Notes: generated by a model from the letters alone, not told the origin. A stretch of DNA of 64,000 nt from Elusimicrobiota bacterium (GCA_016212795.1 JACRDT010000046.1:7486-71485); one strand, 5' to 3'; positions 14,245 through 60,375 are shown, counted from the stretch's first letter. Numbers and translations: made by a program.

Positions 14245-14322
14245 GGCGGGAGACCCCTGGGTAAGAGCGCCTAACAAGACCTAGGCGGGAGCCATGTGGC
14301 CGAGGAGCGCGGGGCAATGGAA

Positions 14323-14415
14323 CTACTTGCGGACTTCGAACTCCCGGACCAGGGCCTCGAACTTCGCGCTATTCTCCGCGTGCTTCCGGTCCACGGCCCG
14401 ACAGCGCTTCGCCAT
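14323..14415 (-). CDS. Candidate 30-aa protein downstream of the NYN/membrane pair
   Basis: ATG ORF MAKRCRAVDRKHAENSAKFEALVREFEVRK starting 10 nt after the upstream stop. Third codon positions are almost all G/C. The SD is weak and no family was recognised. Confidence 0.25.
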   Translation of the reverse strand: MAKRCRAVDRKHAENSAKFEALVREFEVRK

Positions 14416-14425
14416 CTCGGCGCTC

Positions 14426-19157: not shown

Positions 19158-19196
19158 AAAAAGGGACTTTGGGCCCAGACGCGCCTGGGCCCAAAG
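19158..19196 (-). terminator. Rho-independent terminator after the PrcB_C-like gene
   Basis: Perfect 12-bp stem CTTTGGGCCCAG / CTGGGCCCAAAG (19167-19178 / 19185-19196) with a 6-nt loop. On the minus strand it is followed by TCCCTTTTTCG. Confidence 0.7.
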
Positions 19197-19198
19197 GC

Positions 19199-20125
19199 CT
19201 ACTTGCCTTTCGTCTCCCTTACGAACCTGACCGGAAGGTCGCTGCGCGGGATGATCTGCATGGCGTACGGGGAGGTCGGCGTCTGCGGCGCAGACACGCC
19301 GGCCGCCGGCTCGACGACCCGGTAGCGCACCACGATGGAGGTCTCGGTCGGCCCGACGTCGACGACCTCGACGTCGTAGCCCGCCGTGGGCTGGTGCCCC
19401 AGGAAGACGGCCACGACCTCGTAGCGCTTGAAATCGACGCCCGGGATCGGCTCCTGCGACAGGCGGGTCCAGGCCTTGCGCCACTCCTCGGCGCTCATGA
19501 TGGTCATCGTGCCGTCCTCGTTGGCCCCGCCGTACTGCCCGCGCCAAGCCACCTGCGCCGGGCCGTCGGCCAGGGGGGCGGACTCCTTCGGAGGGGAGGC
19601 CAGCAGCTTGGCGGTCCGGCCCGAGATGGGCACGGCCCGGCGCGACCGGGCCTCCATCGACTCCCGGATGAGCTCCAGCTGCCTGATGTACTCGGCCATG
19701 TAGGCGCGGCGGGCGTTCATCGACATCCCCGGCGCCGCCTCCGGCGACGAGACGGGCTCGGACGCGTAGGACCCGTAGTACGGGAGGTCCTGGCGGCCGC
19801 CGGACGGCTGAGGCTCCGGGCCGCCGAGCCCCGGGCCGGCCGGCGCGGGCTTCGCTGTCCCCTCGGGCTTGACGCCCGCCGGCACGGACGAGCCGTCTTC
19901 CAGCGGAAGCGTCTGGCGCGTCCCCCCCAGCGGTGCGCCGGACGGGTCCGCGTCGGAGCGCTGCGCAGCGGGAGCAGGGGGGCTGGCCGCGGGGCGAAGC
20001 AGGCGGCCGGCCGCGAGCATCAACGCCAGACCGGCCAGCGCCGAGACCAGCCCGATGCCCGCCCGGCGGTAGGCCGGGTCGTTCCACAGGGCCGTCAGGC
20101 CCTTGCCGTTTCGCGGTTGGTCCAT
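19199..20125 (-). CDS. Membrane-anchored protein with a C-terminal PrcB_C-like domain
   Basis: N-terminal TM GIGLVSALAGLALMLAAG and a Pro/Ala/Gly-rich linker. The C-terminus EEWRKAWTRL..PGVDFKRYEVVAVFLGHQPTAGYDVEVVDV...SPYAMQIIPRSDLPVRFV resembles the PrcB C-terminal domain pattern (from memory). Confidence 0.55.
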   Translation of the reverse strand: MDQPRNGKGLTALWNDPAYRRAGIGLVSALAGLALMLAAGRLLRPAASPPAPAAQRSDADPSGAPLGGTRQTLPLEDGSSVPAGVKPEGTAKPAPAGPGLGGPEPQPSGGRQDLPYYGSYASEPVSSPEAAPGMSMNARRAYMAEYIRQLELIRESMEARSRRAVPISGRTAKLLASPPKESAPLADGPAQVAWRGQYGGANEDGTMTIMSAEEWRKAWTRLSQEPIPGVDFKRYEVVAVFLGHQPTAGYDVEVVDVGPTETSIVVRYRVVEPAAGVSAPQTPTSPYAMQIIPRSDLPVRFVRETKGK

Positions 20126-20135
20126 GGCCCGCGGC

Positions 20136-29000: not shown

Positions 29001-29224
29001 CAGACCTTGGCCGTCATGTCCTTGCTCCCCGTGGCCAAGAGCCTGCCGTCCGGGCTGACGGAGAGCGTGACGACGCATTGCTGGTGCCCGGTCTGGACGG
29101 TCAACTCCGGCCTGGGGCCGGCCGAGGCGGGGTCCGACGCCTGTCCGGCCGCCTGGGCCCGCCAGGACAGGCAGAAGACCGCAAGCGCGGCCCTCAGCCC
29201 CCCCCTCGGCCCTGGCATACGCAT
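26018..29224 (-). CDS. Exported WD40-repeat (about 14 blades) protein with a C-terminal caspase-like (peptidase C14) domain
   Basis: Repeated ..SPDG..LATGS.D.TAKLWD.. units over ~600 aa. The C-terminal caspase His/Cys dyad contexts are VVYLAGHGE and LLLMDACKSGG. Start placed at the ATG at 29224 (MRMPGPRGGLRAALAVFCLSWRAQAAG, signal-like). Confidence 0.85.
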   Translation of the reverse strand: MRMPGPRGGLRAALAVFCLSWRAQAAGQASDPASAGPRPELTVQTGHQQCVVTLSVSPDGRLLATGSKDMTAKVWDLATGAELRTFKQSGVDLRLAGLMPDGKRLVTAGSDGAAKLWDVATGEELKAFQGPRRTLMSAGVSPDGRLLATADVEDTIRVLDLETGAELSAIRSRGWAFGPGSFSPDGKLLAVAGPGSAATLWDTSTGAQVRTFQGHAKSVVTAVISPDGRLLATGSYDKTAKLWDLASGALLKTFAGHGEGIDSLAFAPDGRTLVTGSNDNSAKLWDLATGAALKTIRTEMGPVMAAAFSPDGSRLVTSSCFALKLWRLSTGKEVRSFSHDWTAVRHLSVSPDGGFLAVVSMDGLTVWDLAAGRRLPSFPGDGRSAEPAEVIAGGAGMFVATPDSIKVYGLPPKEERRSIPGHSPFALSSDGKVLALTKNKEDAVVLWDVAASAPVRTFADTADSYYGRVALGPDGRFLATARSKEAGVKLWDALSGERLRTLEDGQWVSGMGFSPDGRTLATGNTEGTVKLWDVSSGVMARSFKAHPAAISLLTFSRDGARLATADREGAVKLWDPGTGSLTADLQGHADTMRALAFGPDGKKLFSGGADGTVRIWEAVSGKELCRVVRTNHGWVAVTPDGFFDGSREGVKSIRWTVGLESYPLEAFSEGYYVPGLLARVLAGAPLSAESLPGLSRGFAPPPRVRIVSPKDGSEPPGETAEVAVEVEDRGGGVDELRLYHNGKVVEGEGRDIKVTGPGSRASTRVFHVAMLEGENTLRAVALSRDRIEGNPDEVVVTRAGPAKRAVLHVLAVGINKYKNPALDLNYARADAQGLLDFFGSSGAGLFQDVRRAAVFDREATKAGILAGLESLKDAAPQDVVVVYLAGHGEGVGNAWYFVPHELTFPEREEELRANALSSADLQAAVAALGARKVLLLMDACKSGGALLAFAGRGFEERKALATLARAAGVHVVAASTQDQIAAEVKALGHGVFTHTLLEGLSGRADGSPKDGAVTVRELLSFVESRLPEVSQKYRAQAQYPVVDSRGMDFPISAVRGGPAPARAPTRRR

Positions 29225-29259
29225 ATGGTAGCATGGATGTATTCTTGGGAGGTGACCGC

Positions 29260-31134
29260 GTGAAGGAACTGAACTGGCGCTTGGTGCTTCTGGGAGGCTT
29301 GTTGTGCGCCGTGGCCGCCGCCGCGACACCTTATGTGACGTTGAAGCTGGGGCAGAGCGTCGACCTGACGATGGGCGGGATGTTCCTGGCCGCCTATGTC
29401 CTGGGCGGGCGGGTGGGCGGCCAGGCGCTCGCCATCCAGCTCAACATCATCCAGACCATGATCGGCGTCGTGTCCGGCATCGCCTTCATGGTCGTCATCC
29501 TCGCGGCGTTCTTCTACATCCAGAACGTCTTCGGGCGGGACATCGGCTTCAACCCGACGACCTGGCAGATGTTCCTCTGGCTGCTCATCTCCGCGAACCT
29601 CGGCGTGTTCATGGGCATCATCCCGAGGCGCTCGATCCTGAAGGACCGCTCGCTCCCCTGGCCGGCCAGCAAGGCGACCCTGAGCGTCGCCCAGACGCTG
29701 ACCGATCCCAAGGCGACGGCCGCCACCAAGGCCAGACGCGACGTCCTGATGGTCAGCACCGCAACGGCGGGGTTCCTGACGTTCCTGCGCGACGGGCTCG
29801 GCGTCATCACGCCCATCGTCGGCAACGCCGCCCTGAACATCTCGCTGGGGCCCGAGTTCGCGGCGTTCGGCATCGGCATGCTGGTGCCTTTGTCCGTGGG
29901 GCTCTCGGGCCTGCTGGGGACGTGGATCGTCAGCGCTTTCGGCGAGACGGCGGCGAAGTACGCGGCGCTCTCGGGCGTCGCGCCGCAGGGCTTCGACGCC
30001 TGCCTCGACGTTCTGGGCAAGGTGTCCGGTCTCGACGGCGCGGAGAAGGCGAAAGCCCTCGACTTCCTGGCCGCGGGCTGCGGCAAGGCCGCGGAATTCG
30101 CCGGCGCCTCCTCCCACTTCAAATACGTGGTGCAGTGGATGATGTGGCCGGCCACGGCCATGATGGTCGCCGCCGCGCTCACGAGCGTGATCATCCCGCT
30201 CGTCCAGAACTTCTTGAGCCGCGGGAAGGGGCCGGCAGAGGAAGAGGTCCGTTCCCTGGCCGACGAGGAGATCCCCCTCTGGTGGACCGCGACCGGCATC
30301 TCCGTCTGCGTGGCGCTCCTCGTCTGGCTGACGAGCTCGTGGTTCTCGATGTCCTGGACGGAGGTGCTGCTGGCGGTCGCCATCCAGCCCGTCCTGATCG
30401 TGGCCGGCCTGAGGGTGCTGGGGATCACCGGGTCAGGGCCCGTCTCCCTGATGGCCAACGCCACGCAGTTCCTGTTCGGGCTGATCTGGCCCGCGCAGAT
30501 CCGGTCCAACCTTGCAGCGGCGTACATCAGCGCCAACCCGCAGGCCTCGTCGGAGAACGTGGTGCCGTCGTTCTGGGTGGCCCAGCGCCTGGGGGGGCGG
30601 TTCAAGACCCTCATCCTGGCCCAGTTGATCGTGATCCCGATCGGCGCGCTGTTGACTCCCCTCATGTTCAACATGCTCGAGCACACCTACGGCATCGGGC
30701 TCAATCCGGGCCAGCTTTCCGCCCCCACGGGACTCAAGATCGCCACGCTGGCCATCGTGATGGAGAAAGGGCTGTCCTTCCTGCCGCGAGGCGCCCTCCA
30801 CGCCTCCATCGTCGCGATCGCGATCGGGGTCCTCTTCGAGCTCCTCCTCGCCGTCCGAAGACGCGATGCCCGCGGCAACGACGCGAGCCGCTTCTGGTGG
30901 GTCCCGATCCCCGCGGCGCTCGGCTTCGCGCTGATCCTGCCGGCCTCTTTGAACATCGGCATCGCCGTGGGGAGCGTGCTCTCGGCCATCTGGCATCGCT
31001 TTTCCCCGGCTGAAGGGGGGTCCTTCGAGTCGTATGCGACGCCCCTGGCCTCGGGGTTGGTGGCGGGGGAGGCGATGGTGGGCTCGATCCTGCTCCCGGC
31101 GCTGGCGATGGTGCTGGAAATGCTCCCTCGATAG
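29260..31134 (+). CDS. OPT-family oligopeptide transporter
   Basis: Polytopic ~624 aa with an OPT-like N-terminus ELNWRLVLLGGLLCAVAAAATPYVTLKLGQ. I prefer the GTG at 29260 because GGGAGG lies 7 nt upstream; the track ATG at 29233 has no SD. Confidence 0.8.
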   Translation: MKELNWRLVLLGGLLCAVAAAATPYVTLKLGQSVDLTMGGMFLAAYVLGGRVGGQALAIQLNIIQTMIGVVSGIAFMVVILAAFFYIQNVFGRDIGFNPTTWQMFLWLLISANLGVFMGIIPRRSILKDRSLPWPASKATLSVAQTLTDPKATAATKARRDVLMVSTATAGFLTFLRDGLGVITPIVGNAALNISLGPEFAAFGIGMLVPLSVGLSGLLGTWIVSAFGETAAKYAALSGVAPQGFDACLDVLGKVSGLDGAEKAKALDFLAAGCGKAAEFAGASSHFKYVVQWMMWPATAMMVAAALTSVIIPLVQNFLSRGKGPAEEEVRSLADEEIPLWWTATGISVCVALLVWLTSSWFSMSWTEVLLAVAIQPVLIVAGLRVLGITGSGPVSLMANATQFLFGLIWPAQIRSNLAAAYISANPQASSENVVPSFWVAQRLGGRFKTLILAQLIVIPIGALLTPLMFNMLEHTYGIGLNPGQLSAPTGLKIATLAIVMEKGLSFLPRGALHASIVAIAIGVLFELLLAVRRRDARGNDASRFWWVPIPAALGFALILPASLNIGIAVGSVLSAIWHRFSPAEGGSFESYATPLASGLVAGEAMVGSILLPALAMVLEMLPR

Positions 31135-36737: not shown

Positions 36738-38320
36738 GACGCTTTGCCTCTCAGACCGATGATGATGAGCGCCGCCGCCACGGCAACGATGGGCAGCCAG
36801 ATCGCCAGCCGCCTCCTGGAACGCCCTCCCGCGACGGCGCCCGTGTCCCAGCGGCGGATAGCGTCGGCAGCGGCTTTGGCCCGCGCTCCTCTCGGGCCGG
36901 GGCCGGCTGCGGCGCCGCCCGCGCGCGCCGTCTCCACCCGCGGTCCCGCCGAGTCTGCCTCCTGGCCCAGCAAGGACCTGGCCCCGGCCAGCAGGCTGCC
37001 GGCGACCCTCTTCCCGGCGCGGGCGAGCAGCCCACCGATGCCCGCGGGCGCCCCGGAGGAAGACGCCTCGGTCTCCGCGACCGCCTTGTCGAAGACGGCG
37101 GCCGCCGACTCGTCGATGGCCGCCATCAGCTCCTTGAATCCCGGCGGCTCCTCGGCGCTCTCCTCCTCCCCCGAACCTGCCTCGGCACCCATCTCTCGGG
37201 CGACCTCTTCGGCCGCGGCTTGGAGGTCCTCGGGCTGGACGAACTCCCCCTTCCGGTACGACATGCCGCCAGCCGCCGGGTTGCACTCCCCCGACACCAT
37301 GGCGCAGGACCGGGTCCAGACGAGGTCGTTGCCGCTCTCCGAGACCCCCATGTCCCGCAGCACGGTCCGCCCGAGCTCGGGCCGTTCCTGGTGGACCCGC
37401 TTAAGCCGATCGAAATCCTCCCGCTTGATGACGTCGAAGAAATCCACCCGCTTCAGAAGCGCTTGCGGCTGGGCGGCCAGGCCAGCGCGCAGGGCCGCGA
37501 GCTCGACTTGGGACGCGGGGGAGCCGTCCTTCCTGACGATGGCACGGCCGCCGCCGGGTCCGGCACCGACGGAAAGACCGACCCGCTCGAGCGCGCCCCG
37601 GTAAGCCGGCAGGGCAGCGAGGGCCAACTCGTCCTCCGGCCCGCGGCGCGGCCCGCCGGCGGGGACGCCCGCACCCTGGGCCGACACCCCGCCGGCCGCG
37701 GTCCCGCCCGGCATCCCGCCGAAAGCGCCGAGCGCGCCGCGCATCCGCTCGGCGGACCCCATGGCTCGGGCCATACCCGCTCCCTTCACCCGGCCCTGGG
37801 ACAGCATCTCCACGCCGCGGCCGCCGCCGGAGCCACGGCTCGCGCCGCCTGGCCGGTCCGCGCCGGCGCGTCCCGCTCCCCCGTCGTCTCCCGTCCTGGT
37901 CGGGCCCGCGTCCGCCCCCGCCAGCGCCGCCGCGGCCGACCCCTCCCCCTGGCCGCGGCTTCCGCCCGGCACGCCCTCGGGGGCCTCCGCCAAGGCGCGG
38001 TCCATGATCGCGTTGAACTTCTGATAGTACTCCCGGGTCGTCTGGTGCTCCTGGCGCAGCTGCTCGAGCTCGACGCGGCTGGCCCCGGGATCCTGCTGGA
38101 GCTCCCTCATCCGGCTCTCCATGTCGCGCAGGCCCGAGGAGAGCTCCCCGACCAGGTCGTTGAGCTTGAAGCCGTCGAGATAAACGATCCTCTCGCCGCC
38201 CTCCCGGCGGACCTCGGGAGGCTTGGCCAGGTCGATCCAGCCCTGCTCCAGGCCCGGGCCTGGCGCCGCCGCTGACGCTCTCGCCGCGATCGACAGGACC
38301 ACCCAGAGTGTCGCGATCAT
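36734..38320 (-). CDS. Exported, C-terminally membrane-anchored Gly/Ala-rich protein, unknown family
   Basis: About 528 aa with signal-like MIATLWVVLSIAARASAAA, long G/A/R-rich low-complexity stretches and a terminal TM LAIWLPIVAVAAALIIIGL. I prefer the ATG at 38320 to the track's TTG at 38329. Confidence 0.5.
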   Translation of the reverse strand: MIATLWVVLSIAARASAAAPGPGLEQGWIDLAKPPEVRREGGERIVYLDGFKLNDLVGELSSGLRDMESRMRELQQDPGASRVELEQLRQEHQTTREYYQKFNAIMDRALAEAPEGVPGGSRGQGEGSAAAALAGADAGPTRTGDDGGAGRAGADRPGGASRGSGGGRGVEMLSQGRVKGAGMARAMGSAERMRGALGAFGGMPGGTAAGGVSAQGAGVPAGGPRRGPEDELALAALPAYRGALERVGLSVGAGPGGGRAIVRKDGSPASQVELAALRAGLAAQPQALLKRVDFFDVIKREDFDRLKRVHQERPELGRTVLRDMGVSESGNDLVWTRSCAMVSGECNPAAGGMSYRKGEFVQPEDLQAAAEEVAREMGAEAGSGEEESAEEPPGFKELMAAIDESAAAVFDKAVAETEASSSGAPAGIGGLLARAGKRVAGSLLAGARSLLGQEADSAGPRVETARAGGAAAGPGPRGARAKAAADAIRRWDTGAVAGGRSRRRLAIWLPIVAVAAALIIIGLRGKAS

Positions 38321-38451
38321 CTGCAGCAAGAGGATAGCGCATCAAGGGGCGGGTGTCCAGAAGGCCCCTTTACCGATAATTTACCTTCCATTAACATCGC
38401 CGCGGTTGATTTTCCCCGTCGAAGGGCTATGCTATTAATGGAGGTGGTTTT

Positions 38452-48944: not shown

Positions 48945-50293
48945 GGCATCCCCCGCACCTTCAAGGTCAAGCCGTCCGCCGAGTCCACGACGACCTCGGC
49001 TCCCTCGGCGATGTCCCCTCCGAGGCTGCGCGCCTTCCAGAGCTCCCCGTGCCAGAAGACGGTCCCGGTCGGCGTCAGCGCCGTCTTGGCGACGGCCGTC
49101 TCCCCGCCGATGTCCTCCAGGCCGATGTCGGTCTTGCGGCCGAGGGCCGTCCTGCTGACGGCCAGCAAGCCGGCGAAGATGGCCAGCAAGGTCCCCAGCG
49201 AGCTCGCCAGGGCGCCGTAGGAGACGGCCAGGCCCCCGCCGCTGTCCTTGAACAGCATCATGGACCCGAAGATGACGGAAGCGGAGCCGCTGAGCGCCAG
49301 GAGGCCGTAGCTCGTGATCTTGAGCTCGAGCAGGAGGAACACGACCCCCAGCATGATGAGCAGCACGCCCGCGTAGCTCGCGGAGAGCGTCTGGAACGAG
49401 TAGAAGGCCAGGACCAGCGACACCGCGCCGACCACGCCAGGGAGGACGAGCCCGGGGCTGTAGAGCTCGATGAGGAGCCCCGCGCCTCCCAGGCTCATGA
49501 GGAGCATCGCGATGTTGGGGTCCGCCACGGTCGCCAGGAGCCGCTGCCGGGCCGTCATGGGCAGGCGCTCGACCCGGGCGCCCTTGGTGGACAGCGGCGC
49601 CTGGAAATCGGCGAGCTTCCTCCCCTCCACGAGGCGGAGGAGCTCGTCGAGGCCGGCCGCCTCCAGATCGACGATGCGCAGCGCCACGGCCTGGCCGGAG
49701 ATGATGGAGGTGCTCTTGCTGACCATCTCGTAGGCCAGCCCCGCGTTGCGGCCCCGGCGCGTCGCGATGGCCTGCAGGTAGGCCCCGGCGTCCTGGGTGA
49801 GCTTCGCCTCCATGACGTCGCCCGTCTTTTCCTTCTCTTTGTCCTTGTCCTTCTCCTTCCCGAACCGCGGCGCGTCGAAATCCCGCCCCAGCGCGACCGG
49901 ATGGGCCGCGCCGATGTTGGTCCCGGGCGCCATGGCCGCCACATGGGCGGCCATCGTGATGAAGACGCCGGCCGAGGCGGCCCTGGCCCCCGCGGGCGCC
50001 ACGTAGACGACCACCGGCACCTGGGCGCCGAAGAAGTCCTTGACGATCTCGCGCATGGGCAGGTCCAAGCCGCCCGGCGTGTCCAGCTCCACCACCAAGG
50101 CGTCGTATTTCCCCTGCTCCGCCTTGGCGACGGCGCCTTTCATGTACTCGGCGGCCGCCGGGCTGATGATGCCGCTGTAGGACGCGACCAGCACGCGCGG
50201 CTCGGGCCGCGACGGGCCGGACGCGGCCTTGGCCCCGAAAGCGGCCACCGGCAGCAGGGCCAGCAGGGCCGCGGCCGCCCGCCGGACGGTCAT
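48941..50293 (-). CDS. NfeD-family membrane-bound ClpP-class serine protease (long form)
   Basis: About 450 aa from the ATG at 50293 (MTVRRAAAALLALLPVAAFG). It has a ClpP-like domain (..ELDTPGGLDLPMREI..PAGARAASAGVFI..), a TM bundle and a C-terminal OB-fold (..GTVFWHGELWKARS..). The ATG overlaps the lepB stop (ATGA). Confidence 0.85.
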   Translation of the reverse strand: MTVRRAAAALLALLPVAAFGAKAASGPSRPEPRVLVASYSGIISPAAAEYMKGAVAKAEQGKYDALVVELDTPGGLDLPMREIVKDFFGAQVPVVVYVAPAGARAASAGVFITMAAHVAAMAPGTNIGAAHPVALGRDFDAPRFGKEKDKDKEKEKTGDVMEAKLTQDAGAYLQAIATRRGRNAGLAYEMVSKSTSIISGQAVALRIVDLEAAGLDELLRLVEGRKLADFQAPLSTKGARVERLPMTARQRLLATVADPNIAMLLMSLGGAGLLIELYSPGLVLPGVVGAVSLVLAFYSFQTLSASYAGVLLIMLGVVFLLLELKITSYGLLALSGSASVIFGSMMLFKDSGGGLAVSYGALASSLGTLLAIFAGLLAVSRTALGRKTDIGLEDIGGETAVAKTALTPTGTVFWHGELWKARSLGGDIAEGAEVVVDSADGLTLKVRGMP

Positions 50294-53099: not shown

Positions 53100-54845
53100 T
53101 CACGTCGCCCTGTCCGGCGGGCCGCCCGCCTGGTCGCGCAGGAGCCGCTTGATCTCCTCGGACTCGGCGCAGCTCAGGGCCTGGCCCACCAGCTTGGCCA
53201 TGGCGTCGTAGCGCAGGGAGCGGATCGCCTGCTTGACCCGGAAGAACATCCTGGGCGTCACCGAGAGGCTGTCGACGCCCATCCCGACGAGCAGCGGGAT
53301 CGCCTGCCAATCCGAGGCCATCTCCCCGCACACGCTCACCCACCGGCCCTTCTTGCGCGCCGTCTGGACGATGTGGTCCATGAGCCGCACCAGCGCGGGG
53401 TGGAACGGGTCGTAGAGGTGGGAGACGTGCTCGTTGAGGCGGTCGACGGCCAGCACGTACTGGATCAGGTCGTTGGTCCCGATCGAGATGAAGTCCAGCA
53501 TCGGCAGGAAGGCGTCGAGCATGATCGCGGCCGACGGGATCTCGATCATGGCCCCGAGCTCGATCTTCTCGGCCGTCTCCACGCCCTCGGCGTGCAGCTC
53601 GGCCAGCGCGAGGTTGATCAGGCGCCGGACGGAGTGCACCTCGCCGACCGAGGACACCATCGGGATGAGGATGCGGACGTTGCCCTTGGCCGAGGCCCGC
53701 AGGATCGCCCGCAGCTGAGTCTTGAAGAGGTCGAGGTGCCTCATGAAGAGGCGGATGCCCCTGAGCCCCATGAAGGGGTTGACCTCGTTCTTGGGGGCGT
53801 CGATGCCCAGCTGCACCAGGCGGTCGCCCCCCAGGTCCGCGGTGCGGATCACGACGGGCCTGGGCGCGAAGGCCTTGACCACCGCCGAGTAGGCCTTGGC
53901 CTGCTCCTCCTCCGAGGGCGGCGTGGCGCGGTTGAAGAAGAGGAACTCGGTCCGGAAGAGGCCGATGCCGTCGGCCTGCAGGTTCAGGAGCGCCTTGAAC
54001 TCGTCGGGCGTGTCGAGGTTCGCGTGGAACTCGAAGACCTTGGAGTCGAGGGTCATCGTCGGCAGGCCCTTCAGGGAGGTGAGCGCCTTCTCCTCCTCCA
54101 GGGCCTTGTGCTGGGCATGGTGGTACTTATCGAGGGTCTCGGGCCCCGGGTTGATGATGACGAGCCCCTGCTCGCCGTCGAGGATGACCGTCTCGCCCGT
54201 CTTGACGCGATGGCTCACGTCGGAGAGCCCCACCACCGCGGGAATCTCCATGGTCTGCGCCAGGATGGCCGTGTGGCTGGTCTTGCCGCCGAGGTCCGTG
54301 GCGAAGCCGAGGATCTTCGTCTCCTGCAGCCCGATGGTGTCCGAGGGGAGGAGGTTGCGGGCGATCAGGATGCAGTTCTCCGAGATGTCCGCCAGGCTGC
54401 GCCGGGTCTGCTTGAGCAGGTGGGAGATGAGCCTCTTGCCCACGTCGAAGAGGTCGTGGCGCCGCTCCCGGAAGAACTCGTCCTCCATCTTCTCGAACTG
54501 CTTGTTGACGGCCTCCAGCGACTCGGACAAGGCGAACTCGGCGTTGACCCCCTCCTTCACGATCCGCTGGGGGACGTCGTGGGTGATGAGGCTGTCGCGC
54601 AGGATCAGGCGGTGGGCGTCGATGAGCTTGGCGTGCTTCTTGCCCAGGACCCTGAGGACCTTGGCCTCGGCCACGTCGAGGTCGCGGTGCGTCGCCTTGA
54701 GCGCCGCCTTGAAGCGCTTCACCTCGGCCCGGAGCTTGTCCCGGTCGATCTCGATCCTGTTGATGACGATCTCCTCGTCCTCCAGGACATAGGCCTTGCC
54801 GATCGAGATGCCCGGGCTGGCCGCGACCCCCTTGATGACGATCAT
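53100..54845 (-). CDS. ptsI: Phosphoenolpyruvate-protein phosphotransferase (PTS Enzyme I)
   Basis: 581 aa co-linear with EI: phospho-His region GGKTSHTAILA and a C-terminal PEP-utilising TIM barrel (..FISIGTNDLIQY..). Confidence 0.95.
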   Translation of the reverse strand: MIVIKGVAASPGISIGKAYVLEDEEIVINRIEIDRDKLRAEVKRFKAALKATHRDLDVAEAKVLRVLGKKHAKLIDAHRLILRDSLITHDVPQRIVKEGVNAEFALSESLEAVNKQFEKMEDEFFRERRHDLFDVGKRLISHLLKQTRRSLADISENCILIARNLLPSDTIGLQETKILGFATDLGGKTSHTAILAQTMEIPAVVGLSDVSHRVKTGETVILDGEQGLVIINPGPETLDKYHHAQHKALEEEKALTSLKGLPTMTLDSKVFEFHANLDTPDEFKALLNLQADGIGLFRTEFLFFNRATPPSEEEQAKAYSAVVKAFAPRPVVIRTADLGGDRLVQLGIDAPKNEVNPFMGLRGIRLFMRHLDLFKTQLRAILRASAKGNVRILIPMVSSVGEVHSVRRLINLALAELHAEGVETAEKIELGAMIEIPSAAIMLDAFLPMLDFISIGTNDLIQYVLAVDRLNEHVSHLYDPFHPALVRLMDHIVQTARKKGRWVSVCGEMASDWQAIPLLVGMGVDSLSVTPRMFFRVKQAIRSLRYDAMAKLVGQALSCAESEEIKRLLRDQAGGPPDRAT

Positions 54846-54964
54846 ATCACTCGCCTCCCCCGCGGGGAGGCGAGTAGCGTGGGGGCATATGCCGTTTCAT
54901 CAGTCTGCCTCTCCCCCGCGGGGAGGCGAGTAGCCGAGGGGGCCGACTCGCCGTTCTCCTTGGT
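54846..54964 (-). repeat. Two tandem copies of the SD-sequestering hairpin module (proximal intact, distal decayed) in the ptsH-ptsI spacer
   Basis: The proximal copy has an 11-bp perfect stem at 54850-54860 / 54864-54874 containing the ptsI GGAGG. The distal copy (54903-54964) retains GGGGAGGCGAG-like and GCTACTCGCC segments, but its left arm is imperfect and the mini-ORF ATG reads AGG. Confidence 0.6.
54847..54900 (-). CDS. Candidate 17-codon mini-ORF reading through the hairpin and stopping 1 nt before the ptsI ATG
   Basis: ATG AAA CGG CAT ATG CCC CCA CGC TAC TCG CCT CCC CGC GGG GGA GGC GAG TGA (MKRHMPPRYSPPRGGGE). GGGGGAGAGG from the decayed copy lies 7 nt upstream of its ATG. Confidence 0.3.
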   Translation of the reverse strand: MKRHMPPRYSPPRGGGE

Positions 54965-55231
54965 TCATTCCTCGTCAAACTTCCTCTGAAACAGCCTCTC
55001 CAGCGCCTTCAGCGCCTCCGCCTCGTCGGGCCCCGTGGCCGTGAGGGTGACCCGGGCTCCGTGCTCGGCGGCCAGAAGCATGATGCCCATCACGCTCTTG
55101 CCGTTCACCTCGACGCCTTCCTTGCACACGACGATCTTGCTCTTGAAGCGGCTCGCCTCCTGCACGAACATCGCCGCGGGCCTGGCGTGCAGGCCGAGCC
55201 TGGTGCTGACCGTGATGGTCTTGGTCACCAT
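54965..55231 (-). CDS. ptsH: Phosphocarrier protein HPr
   Basis: 88 aa MVTKTITVSTRLGLHARPAA.. with His15 and Ser46 (GKSVMG) contexts. It is embedded in the 3' part of track ORF 54965..56005 and overlaps the EIID stop by 7 nt. Confidence 0.9.
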   Translation of the reverse strand: MVTKTITVSTRLGLHARPAAMFVQEASRFKSKIVVCKEGVEVNGKSVMGIMLLAAEHGARVTLTATGPDEAEALKALERLFQRKFDEE

Positions 55232-56079
55232 GGCCGGACCGCCGTCCCCAGGGACGCCGCGACGACCCCGACCAACGCCGCCGCGGCGTACATCTTGCGG
55301 GACGTCACGCTGCGCGCCCGCGCCGCCCAGCCCGCCGCGAAAGCCAGGGCGAACCCCCCCGCCTGTCCAAGGGAGCCCCCCATTATAGAGAATAGTACCG
55401 CTGCCGCGCACCCGAAAGTGAGTCCCATCCCTCCCAGCCGGACCAGCTTGATGCACGGCTGCCAGGGGATGTCGCCGATCCCCTGCGCGATCCGGTCGCC
55501 CCATTCGTAGCCGATCCCCAGGCCTCTCCAGCGCAAGAGCAGGACCGGGACGTTGTAGGCGACGAGATAGCCCCCCACGCACGCCGCCGCGACCGCCCGT
55601 TCGCCCGCCCCCATCGCCAACCCCGCGGTCGCCACGGCCAGCGCCAGGGCGGCGCAGAACGGCCGCCAGGCCCCCCAGAACAGCGAATCCCCGATCGCCG
55701 CCAAGGCGCCTGACGAGGCCTTCTTGAGCGCCTCCAGCCTTTCCTCCAGCGGGGCCCTCTCCTCCTCGGCGCTCTCGGCGATCCTGGCCTCCAGGGCGCA
55801 CGCCATGCCCAACCCCAGCCCCACCATGTACGGCTGCGTGTTGTAGAAGACGCAGTGCCTCGAGAGAGCCTGCCGGCCCCTCTCGCGCGACCCCCCGTAG
55901 CAGCGGCGGAGCCACGGCTCCATGCAGTAGCCGAACGCCAGCCCTTGCATGTTCTCGAAGCTCCAAAGGGATTGGATGAAGAAGGACCGCGCGAACAGCC
56001 TCCATCTCATCCCGGGGCCCATCCGGGGGCGGCGCCCTTTCATGACGGCGGGCTCCGCGGGGGTCCCAGGCGTCGTCAT
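55225..56079 (-). CDS. PTS mannose/fructose/sorbose-family EIID component
   Basis: EIID-like N-terminal signature ..RLFARSFFIQSLWSFENMQGLAFGYCMEPWL.. and a membrane C-terminus. The ATG at 56079 overlaps the EIIC stop (ATGA). Confidence 0.8.
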   Translation of the reverse strand: MTTPGTPAEPAVMKGRRPRMGPGMRWRLFARSFFIQSLWSFENMQGLAFGYCMEPWLRRCYGGSRERGRQALSRHCVFYNTQPYMVGLGLGMACALEARIAESAEEERAPLEERLEALKKASSGALAAIGDSLFWGAWRPFCAALALAVATAGLAMGAGERAVAAACVGGYLVAYNVPVLLLRWRGLGIGYEWGDRIAQGIGDIPWQPCIKLVRLGGMGLTFGCAAAVLFSIMGGSLGQAGGFALAFAAGWAARARSVTSRKMYAAAALVGVVAASLGTAVRPW

Positions 56080-56699
56080 CGCTTGACCCTCAGGCTGTGG
56101 GCCAGCATGCCCGCGCCGAACCAGGGCGCCAAGGACAGGGCGGTCCACAGCCCCGCCCCGAGCACCGTCCGCGCTTCGGCCGCCCAGGGCTGGACGCCCA
56201 ACGGCTTCAACGCCAGCAGCGCCGCCAGCAGCAGCGCCAGCGTGGCGCCGAACTCGATGACCAACTCCCGCGCGACCAGCCCGCCCAGGCTGACCTCCGC
56301 TCCCCGCCTGATGCCCGCCCCTACGACGCGCGACATCCGCCCGCGCCGCCGCCGCAGGGGGTTGTCCACCAGCCGCTCGTGCAGCCAGCCCAGGAAGAGC
56401 CCGGCCGGGACGGCCAACGACACCGGGAGGGGCTGGGGCCCGATCGCCAGGAGGACCCCGGCCCCGGCGGAGACGGTGGCGTTGGCCGGGATCTGCCCCC
56501 CCACCGGCAGCTTGTCGTGGCTCAACAACTCGACGACCAGCCCGACCAGCACGCCCGTCGTCAGGTCCCCGAACGCCAGCCCCAGGAGCGGCCCGATCAC
56601 GATGGCCCGGGACACCATGATCTGCAGCGCCAGCGTGGCGTCCAGCTCGGCCGCGGCCACGGCGGCCGCCCCGACCGCGAGCCCCAGGCTGCCGGTCAC
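56076..56699 (-). CDS. PTS mannose-family EIIC component (short form)
   Basis: 207-aa polytopic protein placed between EIIB(Man) and EIID. The GTG start overlaps the EIIB stop (GTGA). It is shorter than the ManY-type EIIC I recall. Confidence 0.7.
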   Translation of the reverse strand: MTGSLGLAVGAAAVAAAELDATLALQIMVSRAIVIGPLLGLAFGDLTTGVLVGLVVELLSHDKLPVGGQIPANATVSAGAGVLLAIGPQPLPVSLAVPAGLFLGWLHERLVDNPLRRRRGRMSRVVGAGIRRGAEVSLGGLVARELVIEFGATLALLLAALLALKPLGVQPWAAEARTVLGAGLWTALSLAPWFGAGMLAHSLRVKR

Positions 56700-57193
56700 G
56701 GCTGCCCAGGCCCCCCCGAGCCGATGAGCGCGACGATGTCGACCTCGGCGTCGCCGGGAACGGCGCGCCCCTCCACCCGCACCCCCCGCCTGCCGATCTC
56801 CAGGATGGCCTCGCGGTCCGCCCGGCTCAGGAAGATGGCCTTCCCCAGCTGCACCCGCCCCGCGGAGTAGTGGAGCCCGCCCACGTTCACCCGCTCGAGC
56901 CTCACGCCCTGCTTGAGGAGCTCGAGGACCTCTTGCGGCCCGGGCGCCAGGACCAGCGCCTTCTCCGGCTTGCCGGCGCAGACCGCCAGGCGCGCCGGCG
57001 CCTCGCTCACGCGCAGGATCTGCAGCCCCACCGACTCAGGCAGGGCCATCCTCATGAGCAGCGCCTGCGTCTCGTCTTGCGCTGCGCCGTCAGACACGAC
57101 CACCACCTCCTGGGCGCCCAGCTGCGGGACCCAGCCCTCCACGACCTGCCCGTGCACGAGCCGGTCGTCGATGCGCACCAAGACGATAGGCAT
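56696..57193 (-). CDS. PTS mannose/sorbose-family EIIB component
   Basis: MPIVLVRIDDRLVHGQVVEGW (phospho-His motif of EIIB-Man). Confidence 0.85.
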   Translation of the reverse strand: MPIVLVRIDDRLVHGQVVEGWVPQLGAQEVVVVSDGAAQDETQALLMRMALPESVGLQILRVSEAPARLAVCAGKPEKALVLAPGPQEVLELLKQGVRLERVNVGGLHYSAGRVQLGKAIFLSRADREAILEIGRRGVRVEGRAVPGDAEVDIVALIGSGGPGQP

Positions 57194-57197
57194 ATGA

Positions 57198-57611
57198 TTA
57201 CCGGGTCCTCGCCCGCACCATCTGGCGGATGTCGCACACCGCGCTGCGCCCGTTCTTCAAGACCTTCTCCAGCAGCTCCCCCAGCGGCAGGTCTCCGCGG
57301 TGGCTGAAGGCCGTCACCAGCATCGCCAGATTGACCCCGCTGACCAGCTCCGTCCCGCTCTTGTCCTTGACCGCGGGGAACGCCAGGTTGACCGGGGTCC
57401 CGGCGGGCATGTCCGTGAACACGATGAGGCCGTCCTCGCCGCTCAGGCGCTCGACGACCGCCTTCATCTTCTCGCGCATCTCGCCCAGGCTCTGCCGGAC
57501 CGACAGGGAAACGACCTGGACCCCCGCCGTCTGGCTGCCGACGATGGCTTCCGCCGCCTCCACCAGGTAGGCGCCGAACTCCCCGTGCGTGACGACGATG
57601 CAGTTGATCAT
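57198..57611 (-). CDS. PTS mannose-family EIIA component
   Basis: MINCIVVTHGEFG (His10 phosphorylation motif of EIIA-Man), 137 aa. Confidence 0.85.
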   Translation of the reverse strand: MINCIVVTHGEFGAYLVEAAEAIVGSQTAGVQVVSLSVRQSLGEMREKMKAVVERLSGEDGLIVFTDMPAGTPVNLAFPAVKDKSGTELVSGVNLAMLVTAFSHRGDLPLGELLEKVLKNGRSAVCDIRQMVRARTR

Positions 57612-57673
57612 ATCACTCGCCCTCCCCCCGCTTGGGAGGATCGAGTACGGGGGGGAGAGTAGCGGGGGGGCAT
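57608..57673 (-). CDS. Candidate 21-codon mini-ORF whose stop overlaps the EIIA start (ATGA)
   Basis: ATG CCC CCC CGC TAC TCT ... GTG ATA TGA (MPPRYSPPRTRSSQAGGGRVI). No SD close to its ATG. Confidence 0.2.
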   Translation of the reverse strand: MPPRYSPPRTRSSQAGGGRVI

Positions 57674-57695
57674 ATTCTGTTTCAAAGGAACTCCC
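57612..57695 (-). repeat. Expanded/variant copy of the SD-sequestering hairpin module in the rapZ-EIIA spacer
   Basis: The minus strand reads ..GAAACAGAATATGCCCCCCCGCTACTCTCCCCCCCGTACTCGATCCTCCCAAGCGGGGGGAGGGCGAGTGATATG. The same ends are kept as in the other copies, with an internal duplication. CTCGATCCTCCC pairs with GGGAGGGCGAG imperfectly. Confidence 0.5.
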
Positions 57696-58589
57696 TCACC
57701 CCGCCCGGTGGATGTCCCGATGAAATTCCTGTATCGGATGCCCGCTGCGCCGGAGCCTCTTCGCCAGGTAATGCGTGATGAACACGCTGCGGTGGCGCCC
57801 GCCCGTGCAGCCGACGGCGATGGTCAGATAGGATTTACCCTCCCGCACGTAGAAGGGCAGGAGCTTCAAGATGAATTCCAGGTAGTCGTCCAGGAACCTC
57901 TTAGCCTGGGCCTCCGCGAGGATGTAGCGCTGGACGCCGGGATAGAGCCCGGTGAGCCGCCGCAGGCGGCCGACGTAGTTGGGGTTCGGCAGGAAGCGGA
58001 CGTCCATGACGATGTCGGCGTCCATGGGCAGCCCGTATTTGTAGCCGAATGAGACCACGGAGAGCGTCATCTCCCGGGTCCGGGTCAGCCCCAGGGTCTC
58101 GGACAGGGTCTCCTTGAGCTCCCCCAGGGTCATGGTCGTCGTGTCGATGACCTTGTCCGCTATCTCCCGGAGCGGGAGCAGCCTGTTGCGCTCCTCTCGG
58201 ATGGCGTCCGAGAGCTTCCTGCCCAGGGGGTGGCGGTGGCGCGTCTCGGAGAACCGCTGGATCACGGTGGGATCGGCGGCCTCAAGGAAGATGATCCTGT
58301 GGTCGATCCCCTTGGTCTTGAACCTCTTGAGGATGCCGGGCAGCCCGGCGAGCCAGCGGCCCTCCCGGATGTCCATCCCCAGCGCGACCCGAGAGAGCTT
58401 GCGAGCTTGGTAGACCTGGGCCGCGAACTGGTCCAGCAGTGAGATGGGGAGGTTGTCGACGCAGAAGAAACCAAGGTCCTCGAACGCCTTCAGCGCCTGG
58501 CTCTTGCCCGCGCCGGAGATCCCCGTGATGATGAAGAACTTGCGGCCCTTGTCGGCCTTGGCCTGGCCGCCGCGCGCGCGGGCCCTCAT
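57696..58589 (-). CDS. rapZ: RNase adapter protein RapZ (YvcJ/YhbJ family P-loop protein)
   Basis: FFIITGISGAGKSQALKAFEDLGFFCVDNLP and a C-terminal ..AVGCTGGRHRSV.. motif. The ATG at 58589 overlaps the hprK stop (ATGA). Confidence 0.9.
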   Translation of the reverse strand: MRARARGGQAKADKGRKFFIITGISGAGKSQALKAFEDLGFFCVDNLPISLLDQFAAQVYQARKLSRVALGMDIREGRWLAGLPGILKRFKTKGIDHRIIFLEAADPTVIQRFSETRHRHPLGRKLSDAIREERNRLLPLREIADKVIDTTTMTLGELKETLSETLGLTRTREMTLSVVSFGYKYGLPMDADIVMDVRFLPNPNYVGRLRRLTGLYPGVQRYILAEAQAKRFLDDYLEFILKLLPFYVREGKSYLTIAVGCTGGRHRSVFITHYLAKRLRRSGHPIQEFHRDIHRAG

Positions 58590-59542
58590 GCCCCTGGCTT
58601 CCCGCCCCTCGGGGCGGCACGCATCTTCTCGATGAGCCTCCGGTTGAAGGTTTCCGCGGCAAAGTACCCCTGGCCGCGCAACCGCTGGTTGAGCGCCGCG
58701 ACTTCGATGAGGATCGCCAGATTCCGGCCGGGGCTGACGGCGATCCTGATGAGCGGGATGCGGATACCCACGATGGAGGTGTTCAAGGATTCCAGGCCGC
58801 TGCGGTCGTACTTGGCCTGGGCGTCCCACGGCTCCAACTGGACGGCAAGCTCGACGGGCACGCGGTCCAGGATGGCCCCCACGCCGAAGAGCTGCTTGAC
58901 GTCGATGATGCCCAGGCCGCGGACCTCGATGTAATGCCTGAGCGGCTCGGGGCACATGCCCCAAAGGACCCCGCCCCTGCGGTGCTGCACCTCGATGGCG
59001 TCGTCGGCCACCAGGATGTGGCCCCGCTTGAGCAGCTCCAGCGCGCATTCCGACTTCCCGATCCCCGGCTCCCCCTGGATGAGCAAGCCCAGGCCGTAGA
59101 CCTCGACCAGGACGCCGTGGATGACCGTCCTGGGGGCGAGGCGTTCCTCCAGGAACGCGCTCAGGTCGCCGACCAGGAGCGCCGTGTCGAGCCTCGAGCG
59201 CAAGAGCGGCACGCCGCTCTTCCGGCAGGCCTGCACCAGGATGGGCGGCGCCTTCAAGTTGTGGGTCAGGATGAGGCACGGCAGCTGCGGGTGGGCGAGC
59301 ATCGCGCTGAGCGCGCCCTGCAGCGCCTTCTGCGGCGCCTTCATGCAGAAGGACTGCTCGCCGTTGCCGATGATCTGGATGCGCTCCGGCCGGAAATGGT
59401 CCTGCGAGCCGATGAGCGCCAGGCCGGGCCGGTTGAGGTCGGAGACCGTGATCTTGCGGCCCAGGGATTTCTCGCCGGCGATCAGCTCAAGGCCGAGCTC
59501 GTCTTTCTCCTCTTTGAGCAGGTCGCCGACGGTCACGTTCAT
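58586..59542 (-). CDS. hprK: HPr kinase/phosphorylase
   Basis: 318 aa with the P-loop GEPGIGKSECALEL and co-linear HprK similarity. Confidence 0.95.
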   Translation of the reverse strand: MNVTVGDLLKEEKDELGLELIAGEKSLGRKITVSDLNRPGLALIGSQDHFRPERIQIIGNGEQSFCMKAPQKALQGALSAMLAHPQLPCLILTHNLKAPPILVQACRKSGVPLLRSRLDTALLVGDLSAFLEERLAPRTVIHGVLVEVYGLGLLIQGEPGIGKSECALELLKRGHILVADDAIEVQHRRGGVLWGMCPEPLRHYIEVRGLGIIDVKQLFGVGAILDRVPVELAVQLEPWDAQAKYDRSGLESLNTSIVGIRIPLIRIAVSPGRNLAILIEVAALNQRLRGQGYFAAETFNRRLIEKMRAAPRGGKPGA

Positions 59543-59613
59543 ATCACTCGCCTCCCCCGCGGGGAGGCGAGTAGCCAGGGCTAACCGCCGTTATCATGGC
59601 CCGTTCCTTCCCG
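59543..59613 (-). repeat. Intact copy of the SD-sequestering hairpin module in the hpf-hprK spacer
   Basis: An 11-bp perfect stem at 59547-59557 / 59561-59571 (CTCGCCTCCCC / GGGGAGGCGAG on the minus strand) contains the hprK SD. The GAGTGATATG junction is identical to the ptsI copy. Confidence 0.6.
59544..59597 (-). CDS. Candidate 17-codon mini-ORF reading through the hairpin and stopping 1 nt before the hprK ATG
   Basis: ATG ATA ACG GCG GTT AGC CCT GGC TAC TCG CCT CCC CGC GGG GGA GGC GAG TGA (MITAVSPGYSPPRGGGE). SD GAAGGAA (59604-59610) lies 6 nt upstream. Confidence 0.3.
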   Translation of the reverse strand: MITAVSPGYSPPRGGGE

Positions 59614-60135
59614 TCAGCGCTTTCTAACAGGCTGGATGATGCAGTAGGACTCGTCGTCGCGCCGGTAGATCACCTGCAGCTGCTTGGAGTCGCGGTCCTC
59701 GAAGAGCATGAAGGCGTGCCCCGCCTCGTCCATGCGGACCGCCGCCTCCTGCGGGGTGATCGGGGATACCGCCGTCTTGACGACGGCGAACTGCAGCGCC
59801 GCCGCCGGAGCCGGCTGCCCCTCCCTCGAGGAGTCATCCGGCGTCTTATGGTGGTCGCGCAGCCGCTCCTTGTATTTCTTAATCTGGCCGTCGATCTTGT
59901 CGGTCGCCAGGTCGATGGCGGAATACAGGTCCCCGGCCGAGGCCAGCGCCCGAAACGTCTGGCGCGAGCCGTGGATAACGATCTCCGCTTTGTGGGCCCT
60001 CTTCTCGATGAACAATACCACTTGCGCCCAGACAAGGTGGTCGAAATACCGTTCGGCCTTCCCGACCTTCTGCCGGACGTAGCTGTCGATGGCGTCAGTG
60101 ATTTTGAGTCGTCTGGCTGTCAGATTGATTTTCAT
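59614..60135 (-). CDS. hpf: Ribosome hibernation promoting factor (long HPF)
   Basis: MKINLTARRLKITDAIDSYVRQKVGKAERYF.. (S30AE/HPF N-domain) plus a C-terminal dimerisation domain (..GHAFMLFEDRDSKQLQVIYRRDD..). Start moved to the ATG at 60135 with a GAGAGGAA SD. Confidence 0.9.
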   Translation of the reverse strand: MKINLTARRLKITDAIDSYVRQKVGKAERYFDHLVWAQVVLFIEKRAHKAEIVIHGSRQTFRALASAGDLYSAIDLATDKIDGQIKKYKERLRDHHKTPDDSSREGQPAPAAALQFAVVKTAVSPITPQEAAVRMDEAGHAFMLFEDRDSKQLQVIYRRDDESYCIIQPVRKR

Positions 60136-60166
60136 AGCCGGTGTTCCTCTCAAAAAATAGCAGTAC

Positions 60167-60195
60167 ATTAAATCACTTTCATGCTGCCCTGTCAA
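60167..60195 (-). promoter_or_regulatory. Near-consensus sigma70 promoter for hpf (and probably the downstream PTS string)
   Basis: The minus strand reads TTGACA (60195-60190), a 17-nt spacer, then TTTAAT (60172-60167), ~30 nt upstream of the hpf ATG. Confidence 0.5.
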
Positions 60196-60257
60196 TCGGA
60201 CATCCATATTCATAAAGGCTCTGCTGTGTTCATTACCCTTTATTAGAAAATTCGTCG

Positions 60258-60286
60258 TTGACCGGACGATAATAATAAGCTAATAT
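60258..60286 (+). promoter_or_regulatory. Near-consensus sigma70 promoter for dnaA
   Basis: TTGACC (60258-60263), a 17-nt spacer, then TAATAT (60281-60286). The predicted ~80-nt leader contains the DnaA boxes. Confidence 0.5.
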
Positions 60287-60352
60287 TTGATATTCACTGG
60301 GCGTCCTATCGGCTAATGCTTGTTTTTACGTCGTTTTTTACTTGTTCTCGAG

Positions 60353-60372
60353 TTATGAACACTTGTGGATAA
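60353..60372. promoter_or_regulatory. DnaA boxes immediately upstream of the dnaA start
   Basis: TGTGGATAA at 60364-60372 is the perfect complement of TTATCCACA. TTATGAACA at 60353-61 matches 7 of 9. Confidence 0.6.
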
Positions 60373-60375
60373 CCT

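Follow-up and report, generated by a model that had tools for sequence, protein, structure and literature searches.

The stretch of DNA analysed here, 64,000 nucleotides from an Elusimicrobiota bacterium (GCA_016212795.1 JACRDT010000046.1:7486-71485; hereafter the window), carries on its minus strand a phosphotransferase system (PTS) operon, hpf-hprK-rapZ-EIIA-EIIB-IIC-IID-ptsH-ptsI (53100..60213), which is divergent from dnaA, and three junctions of this operon hold a repeated module of about 55 nt whose hairpin pairs the Shine-Dalgarno (SD) sequence of the next gene. The operon was delimited by open reading frame (ORF) calls and Pfam, which confirmed hpf, rapZ, EIIA-man, EIIB-sorbose, IIC, IID, HPr and PtsI; the product of hprK is identical to a database protein, HPr(Ser) kinase/phosphatase, with the precomputed domains Hpr_kinase_N and Hpr_kinase_C. 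The element-bearing spacers measure 71 nt (hpf/hprK), 84 nt (rapZ/EIIA) and 119 nt (ptsH/ptsI), and the junctions without the element are ATGA, GTGA or ATGGTGA overlaps, or a 4-nt gap; four of about eight same-strand spacers of 35-180 nt in the window are due to the element. An earlier description made from the nucleotides alone (hereafter the sequence-only reading) had given the same gene identities and had described the remaining junctions as overlaps or a 4-nt gap, in agreement with Pfam and with our reading of the sequence. It had also placed one module in each of the three spacers; all three sites hold the features it described, but the ptsH/ptsI spacer contains two tandem copies and a further copy lies outside the operon.

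A covariance model built from ten copies and run over the window with filters off returned exactly five copies, with no other match above noise:

54841..54900, minus strand: copy A, directly 5' of ptsI; hairpin at 54848-54876; 74.9 bits, exact palindrome
54901..54958, minus strand: copy A', in tandem upstream of A, with an imperfect 3' arm (GGGGGAGAGGCAG); 36.5 bits, 5'-arm match
59538..59597, minus strand: copy B, hpf/hprK spacer; 13-bp hairpin at 59545-59573, GGAGG at 59551-59555, hprK ATG at 59540-59542; 66.8 bits, exact palindrome, fold
57607..57685, minus strand: copy C, rapZ/EIIA spacer; degenerate, with a 19-nt loop insert; 57.7 bits
6885..6968, plus strand: copy D, with an extra inner hairpin; 52.9 bits, sequence

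The operon copies stand on the minus strand directly 5' of hprK, EIIA and ptsI and follow the consensus AACGG..CCCCCTCGG-CTAC-TCGCCTCCCC-GCG-GGGGAGGCGA-GTGATATGA. A canonical copy comprises a leader, AAC(G/A)G..GCCCCC(T)CGG-CTAC, then a perfect GC-rich hairpin, whose 5' arm is an anti-SD and whose 3' arm is a strong SD (GGGGGAGG), and finally a tail, GTGA(T/C)ATGA, with its ATG 8 nt past the SD and with UGA closing the two remaining frames. Written as GUGAUAUGA (G-UGA-U-AUG-A), this tail implies that a ribosome arriving in any frame stops at the downstream start or enters it. The 25-nt palindrome CTCGCCTCCCCGCGGGGGAGGCGAG is exact at 54850-54874 and 59547-59571 (minus strand; shuffle expectation 0.01), and copies A and B are identical across 36 nt. 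Three occurrences of the 3' arm together with the tail, GGGGGAGGCGAGTGATATG, were counted in the operon; the 5' arm, GCTACTCGCCTCCCC, has four matches, and these revealed the second, imperfect copy in the ptsH/ptsI spacer. Conservation extends beyond the hairpin to the leader, since the pattern (A/G/T)TGA-AAC(G/A)G..GCCCCC.CG(G)CTAC has three matches against 0.05 expected, and ATGAAACGGCAT..GCCCCC.CGGCTAC is common to copy D and to the ptsI and EIIA copies. Copy D lies between an MMPL gene (6960-9500) and a PLD gene (3606-6782), both on the minus strand, and is therefore antisense to both, and its tail (GAGTTAT) extends over the stop codon of the MMPL gene. The element is not an artefact of a single assembly, as a Logan contig from an independent assembly (L022) starts within the hprK hairpin, and this also indicates that it breaks assemblies in the way repeats do.

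Copy D (6885-6968) shares its extra inner hairpin (CCCCTGGC...GCCAGGGG) with a copy in a relative, L014:14220-14360, which additionally has another hairpin, of 8 bp (CCGTGCGA...TCGCACGG). The family has a modular build and has diversified within genomes.

RNAfold confirmed the 11-bp perfect stem over GGAGG that the sequence-only reading had described and extended it to 13 bp (U-G, A-U, then 11 bp), with a free energy of -26.3 kcal/mol for the core hairpin. The folds of the whole spacers gave z = -3.3 and -3.7 against shuffles for the two perfect spacers, and the EIIA copy, whose stem the sequence-only reading had already called imperfect, is degenerate and folds no better than shuffles (z = -0.4). 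The predicted probability of being unpaired averaged 0.07-0.17 for the SDs of hprK, EIIA and ptsI, and 0.37-0.78 for the start codons of the short ORFs described below. Structure over a ribosome-binding site (RBS) lowers initiation, and with a stem of -26 kcal/mol over the SD, de novo initiation at these genes should be very inefficient.

In the predicted minimum free energy fold of copy A' (54901-54964, minus strand), the leader GGCGAGU pairs with the copy's own 5' arm ACUCGCC and the degenerate 3' arm GGGGGAGAGG is left free, 7 nt 5' of the AUG of the second ORF in this spacer (ORF2); such an alternative structure could expose an SD for ORF2.

Each window copy at a gene start is crossed by a short ORF, which we call a relay ORF, that begins upstream, spans the two arms and terminates at position -4 or +1, counted from the gene start:

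59544..59597, minus strand: relay ORF of hprK, MITAVSPGYSPPRGGGE and stop; UGA 1 nt 5' of the present hprK AUG
TTG 57685 or ATG 57673 to 57608, minus strand: relay ORF of EIIA; ends as AUGA on the EIIA start
54968->54900, minus strand: relay ORF1 of ptsH/ptsI, MNQGERRVGPLGYSPPRGGEAD and stop; starts in the ATGA on the ptsH stop and ends as UGAUG on the ORF2 start
54900->54847, minus strand: relay ORF2 of ptsI, MKRHMPPRYSPPRGGGE and stop; crosses the second hairpin and ends as UGA-U-AUG at ptsI

The ptsH/ptsI spacer holds a chain of two mini-ORFs, one per hairpin. These translations reproduce those of the sequence-only reading, with the addition that the EIIA mini-ORF may also begin at TTG 57685. 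That reading had drawn attention to the equal length of two mini-ORFs, 17 codons despite offsetting indels; this is weak evidence, as two frames meet a stop in the tail and the third a start, so that all frames end or start there. The peptides differ between subfamilies (..YSPPRGGGE against ..MLASPRGRLAT, each before the stop), and this, together with the frame-independent tail, implies that the passage of the ribosome matters, if anything does, and not the product.

Copies in other genomes were sought with a start-codon-blind pattern, GCTACTCNCC-N3-33-GGGGAGGCGAGT, over one genome per species and the JGI metagenomes. True matches were confined to Elusimicrobia. The metagenomes added one true copy (L012), their remaining matches being unrelated repeats or chance, and no copy was matched in viral contigs. 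The cores of the copies in other genomes are near-identical to those of the window and differ in the loop (GTG for GCG) and in the tail (GACATG for GATATG). The loci, including two diverged copies identified with the covariance model, were as follows:

L002: between efp and a HAD hydrolase gene, whose GTG start lies inside the tail
L005: at the junction of a bacterial microcompartment (BMC) shell gene with EutN; the ATG is part of the tail
L003: occupies the space that separates tRNA-Pro(ggg) from tRNA-Pro(cgg)
L004, 7701-7760: antisense, with tRNA-Leu on one side and the start of psd on the other
L012: directly 3' of the phosphoglucomutase (PGM) stop, 57 nt before the RBS of metK itself
L004, diverged copy between holB and metG: mini-ORF from the TGATG on the holB stop to the ATGA on the metG start
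L004:2995-3081, diverged copy between tmk and holB: the tmk ORF reads through it

The tmk ORF of L004 has no stop before the element; its Tmk domain ends at residue 606 of 635, the last 29 or so residues are encoded by the element, and the stop falls 4 nt before the holB ATG. Overall, of the 14 known copies, 10 lie at intercistronic junctions in the sense direction, where the 3' ATG (or GTG) is the start of the gene or lies within 7 nt of it, and the SD spacing is exactly 8 nt. A stem-crossing ORF that stops at -7, -4, +1 or +4 of the gene start was present in all eight sense junction copies (8/8), and in one of them it is the upstream gene itself. The ORFs end as AUGA or AUGGUGA in the EIIA, metG and L014 ptsH copies, and as UGA-N-AUG in the hprK and ptsI copies. 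The sequence-only reading had held that copies scattered without relation to start codons would speak against it, and such copies exist in part: the four exceptions are the one antisense to the MMPL and PLD genes (D), the one between the tRNA-Pro genes (L003), the one antisense beside tRNA-Leu (L004t) and the one that follows the PGM stop (L012).

Information on the history of the element came from the orthologous operons of six relatives (L014, L015, L017 and L023-L025), whose HprK proteins are 69-83% identical to that of the window and whose gene order is the same, including the divergent dnaA. Their spacers at the three junctions are:

hpf/hprK: 1, 9, 4, 18, 9 and 15 nt
rapZ/EIIA: 1, 15, 17 and 13 nt; overlap in two
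ptsH/ptsI: 12, 9 and 18 nt; two ATGA overlaps; in L017 an assembly gap

The covariance model found no copy in any of the six operons, nor in a further relative, L026, where the neighbourhood of the PLD orthologue is not syntenic with the copy D locus. The sequence-only reading had proposed to look for the stem and the mini-ORF frame in orthologous spacers, and neither is kept, as these are overlapping or only 1-18 nt long and lack the module. As the relatives lack the module at these junctions, the spacers of 71, 84 and 119 nt in the window are due to lineage-specific insertion. L003 and L004, which carry canonical copies, come from one and the same metagenome-assembled genome (MAG) as L014, JACQWX01, so that the three junctions are empty even where the genome has the element. 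At a different junction, IID/ptsH (127 nt), L014 does have a diverged family member of its own, which begins with GTGAAACGGCG..GCCCCCACG and has ATGGTGA on both flanks; the same ATGGTGA is the uninterrupted overlap of the IID stop and the ptsH start in the window, L015 and L017.

The comparison of filled and empty junctions places the insertion right past the ancestral start, at ATGA, TTGA or ATGGTGA junctions. When the element and one ATGA are removed from the hpf/hprK spacer, what is left is TGA-cgggaaggaacgggcc-ATGAACGTG or TGA-cgggaaggaacgggcc-ATGAACGTGACC, and excision of TAACGG...GATATGA leaves TGA-16 nt-ATGAACGTGACC, in line with the 1-18-nt spacers of the relatives. The result is an ordinary junction that has an SD, and the restored N-terminus of HprK is the V/M-x-V-T-V-G of the relatives. 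Five of the six relatives start hprK with GTG and the window uses the ATG on the element side; the relay ATG of hprK and the GGAAGGA upstream of it are most likely the ancestral start and SD of this gene. The 5' flank of the rapZ/EIIA copy is TTGA, and TTG-ATC-AAC is the start of EIIA in L024 and L025. Similarly, the ATGA overlap of ptsH and ptsI in L023 and L024 persists at the ptsH stop of the window, where it now opens ORF1. Of 12 copies, seven have a TGA directly 5' of the AAC(G/A)G leader and eight terminate in (A/G/C)TGA. These flanking NTGA sequences are compatible with a short target duplication at NTGA overlaps, or with an element that targets TGA and has a terminal ATGA of its own.

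Two spacers of the relatives deserve a separate comment. The 15-nt rapZ/EIIA spacer of L015 (L015:11845-11859, GCA_041662295.1), gggggcgagtgaaag-ATG, closely resembles the 3' arm and tail of the element (GGGGGAGGCGAGTGAT-ATG) and has no 5' arm. It may be the relic of an old insertion in which the anti-SD half was deleted and a strong unmasked SD was left, or the similarity may have pre-existed. The 294-nt ptsH/ptsI "spacer" of L017 (L017:14602-14895) contains an N-run and long G/C homopolymers and is almost certainly a scaffolding or assembly artefact. The gyrB gene at the L017 locus has an intein domain.

Taken together, our data suggest that the module is probably not a component of the PTS but a dispersed and recently inserted repeat of a narrow group of Elusimicrobia, similar to MIRUs (the interspersed repetitive units of mycobacteria), that is tolerated by preserving translational coupling. 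Four copies would have inserted in the lineage of the window at three operon junctions that were ancestrally overlapping or nearly so, each immediately past an (A/T/G)TGA at the old start codon, so that the upstream gene would keep its stop. The old RBS and start codon would now open a short relay ORF, and the downstream gene would start at an ATG carried or duplicated at the 3' end of the element. Its stem is predicted to bury the new SD, and free 30S subunits should initiate poorly there; ribosomes coming from the upstream gene or the relay ORF would unwind the stem, terminate at UGA-N-AUG or AUGA, and then either re-initiate themselves or leave the SD accessible to a further ribosome. Coupling as it existed before the insertion would thereby be preserved, which would make the insertion nearly neutral and would explain the survival of copies in operons. 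As the SD is buried and a stem-crossing ORF is found in each copy, we infer that hairpin-gated coupling would be the most reasonable way in which the invaded genes are still translated. Of the proposal made in the sequence-only reading, the masked SD and the ORF through the stem are thus retained, and the PTS regulatory module and the structured RNA under selection are not.

Several observations weigh against this interpretation. The outer stem is lost in the two diverged L004 copies (L004m and L004h). Covariation of the stem, proposed earlier as a check, is absent: there is one compensated cell in 128, and 124 of 500 shuffles were as good; the stem is conserved as sequence, not as pairing. 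The relay ORFs are statistically not compelling, given that open frames and GTG or TTG codons are common in sequence of 70% GC and that the tail makes every frame end at the gene start. We rejected the idea that relay starts are confined to genic copies, because a scripted check found in-frame GTG, TTG or ATG codons upstream also in the non-genic copies L003, L004t and L012. Moreover, the L002 copy between efp and the HAD gene has no relay start with an RBS of its own, and relay-ORF coupling therefore cannot hold for every copy. The hairpin could instead reduce or abolish downstream expression. As for mobility, which is inferred, the repeats on the flanks differ in length, from 3 to 7 nt (TGA, ATGA, ATGAAA, ATGGTGA), and could partly be element termini; no transposase, terminal inverted repeats or target duplication of fixed length was found, with no transposase domain among the roughly 45 window genes scanned. 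Look-ups of exact proteins, made to extend the source contig or to detect presence/absence polymorphism, yielded short Logan fragments or no record. Perfect copies are few, with two pattern matches per representative MAG in the two MAGs counted.

A bolder version of the same idea, which we regard as possible and put forward tentatively, is a mobile translational-coupling cassette: a non-autonomous element that would target NTGA overlaps and bring a self-masked RBS and start, making the invaded gene strictly dependent on upstream translation. It would be an independent analogue of MIRUs, possibly mobilised by an activity that recognises the hairpin, and domesticated in places, for instance where the rapZ/EIIA spacer of L015 may keep a relic SD.

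Alternatively, the module could be a dedicated cis-regulatory RNA of the PTS/HPr-kinase operon, evolved to gate hprK, EIIA and ptsI by upstream translation and so to set the stoichiometry of the modules. The sites split the operon into the blocks hpf, hprK-rapZ, EIIABCD-ptsH and ptsI, and the masked SDs, the relay ORFs and the 36-nt identity of copies A and B fit such a device, but none of the six orthologous operons (0/6) has the module, not even the closest ones (83% and 81% HprK identity), the same element stands at unrelated genes, at tRNAs and in antisense, the stem does not covary and the EIIA copy is decaying. This comparison of sequences largely refutes a regulatory device, which we consider very unlikely. 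Another explanation is that the element is a palindrome like the repetitive extragenic palindromic (REP) sequences, acting on the mRNA by blocking 3'-5' exonucleases, by serving as an RNase processing site or by weak attenuation, and that its position at start codons is incidental. This would account for the copies past stop codons (L012, D) and between tRNA genes (L003), and for the occurrence of both orientations, as a palindromic stem forms on either strand; the palindrome with an invariant CTAC/GTAG also recalls REPs. The strong bias of the copies towards sense orientation at gene starts, with their fixed SD spacing, argues against an incidental position, as do the absence of a U-tract, the negative terminator scan, a 13-bp stem that is short for RNase III and the lack of inverted pairs of the kind seen in REPINs and in bacterial interspersed mosaic elements (BIMEs), and we find this explanation improbable. 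It is harder still to credit that the palindrome acts at the DNA level as a protein-binding operator or recombination site repeated in the operon. Its 25-bp perfection, a sequence nearly invariant across genomes and the conservation of sequence and not of pairing would agree with such a role, but the sites are at translation starts inside an operon with no adjacent promoter-like sites, their leader and tail flanks are asymmetric with an orientation that follows transcription, and the element also occurs between tRNA genes and in the 3' end of a gene (the tmk tail).

The module was compared with described RNA families and with other standard classes of element. The sequence-only reading had not recognised it as a described RNA family, and Rfam agrees: over the whole window a tRNA was the sole hit above the gathering threshold, and in a scan of the operon at E<=5 no family overlapped the element spacers. 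An intrinsic terminator or attenuator was rejected, as there is no U-tract, the terminator scan was negative at the elements and the tail is UGAUAUGA. RNA thermometers of the ROSE and fourU types hold the SD in a weak stem with mismatches, which opens at close to physiological temperature, and the perfect, G/C-rich 13-bp stem (-26.3 kcal/mol) rules this out. A CRISPR-repeat origin, suggested by a hairpin followed by ..GAAAC in the tandem pair, was discarded because the segment between the hairpins is conserved among copies, with a period of 56 nt, and a sigma-54 promoter in the leader was dismissed on the unsuitable GG/GC spacing. The promoter scan gave no match at or adjacent to the elements. 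Miniature inverted-repeat transposable elements (MITEs) are marked by terminal inverted repeats and a target-site duplication of fixed length, and palindrome-associated transposable elements (PATEs) derived from IS200/IS605 by subterminal hairpins at either end and insertion 3' of a set tetranucleotide; the module has one hairpin only, no terminal inverted repeats and flank repeats of 3 to 7 nt. No paper linking Elusimicrobia with such repeats was found in the library of papers searched.

According to the passages of PMC12548453 and PMC4473831 that deal with them, MIRUs (Supply et al. 1997) are operon intergenic repeats oriented like the genes, with small ORFs overlapping their neighbours; it is believed that they insert at start codons and that translational coupling at a -4 spacing allows them to be tolerated, and by definition they lack dyad symmetry. 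Compared by layout and not by sequence, the element resembles them as a short (about 50-100 nt) dispersed intercistronic repeat, gene-oriented and sometimes in tandem, whose small ORFs abut or overlap the upstream stop and the downstream start (-4 spacing). In contrast to MIRUs, it has a 13-bp perfect stem masking its own SD, its hosts are Elusimicrobia and not Actinobacteria, and some of its copies are antisense or beside tRNAs. The RNA-unfolding model of translational coupling is reviewed in PMC12548453, and at mgtQ an intergenic ORF opens the RBS of mgtB (PMC8092293). Like mgtQ-mgtB, the rpmI-rplT, MS2/fr coat-lysis and f1 VII-IX systems have a downstream RBS in a stem through which an upstream ORF runs to its stop at or beside the start codon, but each is single, locus-specific and conserved, whereas our element is a portable repeat at many unrelated junctions.

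REP elements are extragenic, multicopy GC-rich palindromes of 25-35 nt with an adjacent invariant tetranucleotide. Their palindrome is imperfect and has a conserved GT[A/G]G head 5' of the stem, and their tens to hundreds of copies stand in both orientations, often as inverted pairs, alongside a cognate gene for a REP-associated tyrosine transposase (RAYT). The module shares with REPs, BIMEs and REPINs the palindrome with its invariant CTAC (GTAG on the other strand), an extragenic location, several copies and the breaking of short-read assemblies. It differs in that CTAC lies 5' of the stem on the sense strand (GTAG 3' on the other), which is the mirror of the E. coli REP, in the absence of inverted doublets (no inverted pair among the 14 copies), in its strong bias to sense orientation at start codons, in carrying an SD, an ATG and a leader, in the scarcity of its perfect copies and in the lack of a RAYT among the roughly 45 window genes scanned. 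Rickettsia palindromic elements (RPEs) are in-frame insertions inside genes, and the L004 tmk ORF with its element-encoded C-terminus resembles them and other MITEs that become coding sequence; unlike RPEs, most copies of the element are intergenic, and the one that is read through lies at the end of a gene.

The surroundings of the operon and the rest of the window showed other features. The PTS operon is back-to-back with dnaA-dnaN-dciA-gyrB in 7 of 7 genomes examined and is therefore in the presumed replication origin region. In the window, the divergent gap between hpf and dnaA (60214-60375) is AT-rich (38% GC) and has sigma-70-like promoter matches. The PLD gene next to copy D (3606-6782, minus strand) encodes a protein of 1058 aa with four PLD-like (PLDc_2) domains that correspond to a four-fold internal DNA repeat; its orthologues are widespread in Elusimicrobia, with at most 63-64% identity over the full length, and two partial fragments reach 71%. 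Another gene (26018-29329, minus strand) encodes a 1103-aa WD40 beta-propeller protein with periodic repeats of 126 nt, seven copies of which are listed at 27596-29079. Finally, four gaps of 0.6-1.3 kb between gene calls filtered by GC at third codon positions (GC3), at 14278-14895, 19195-20135, 37287-38426 and 48945-50289, have about 70% GC and probably hold genes missed by this crude filter.

If the MIRU-like interpretation is correct, intercistronic repeats that seek start codons and survive through the translational coupling they preserve would not be only mycobacterial, and selfish DNA in gene-dense genomes would have come upon this solution repeatedly. The built-in anti-SD/SD hairpin should enforce coupling, and the element would then be a natural portable coupling module for the models of RNA unfolding and re-initiation. 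Furthermore, long spacers of MAGs that look regulatory and carry perfect SD-masking hairpins can be recent insertions, and such elements can create or replace start codons, as at hprK, add tails to proteins, as in the L004 tmk, and fragment assemblies.

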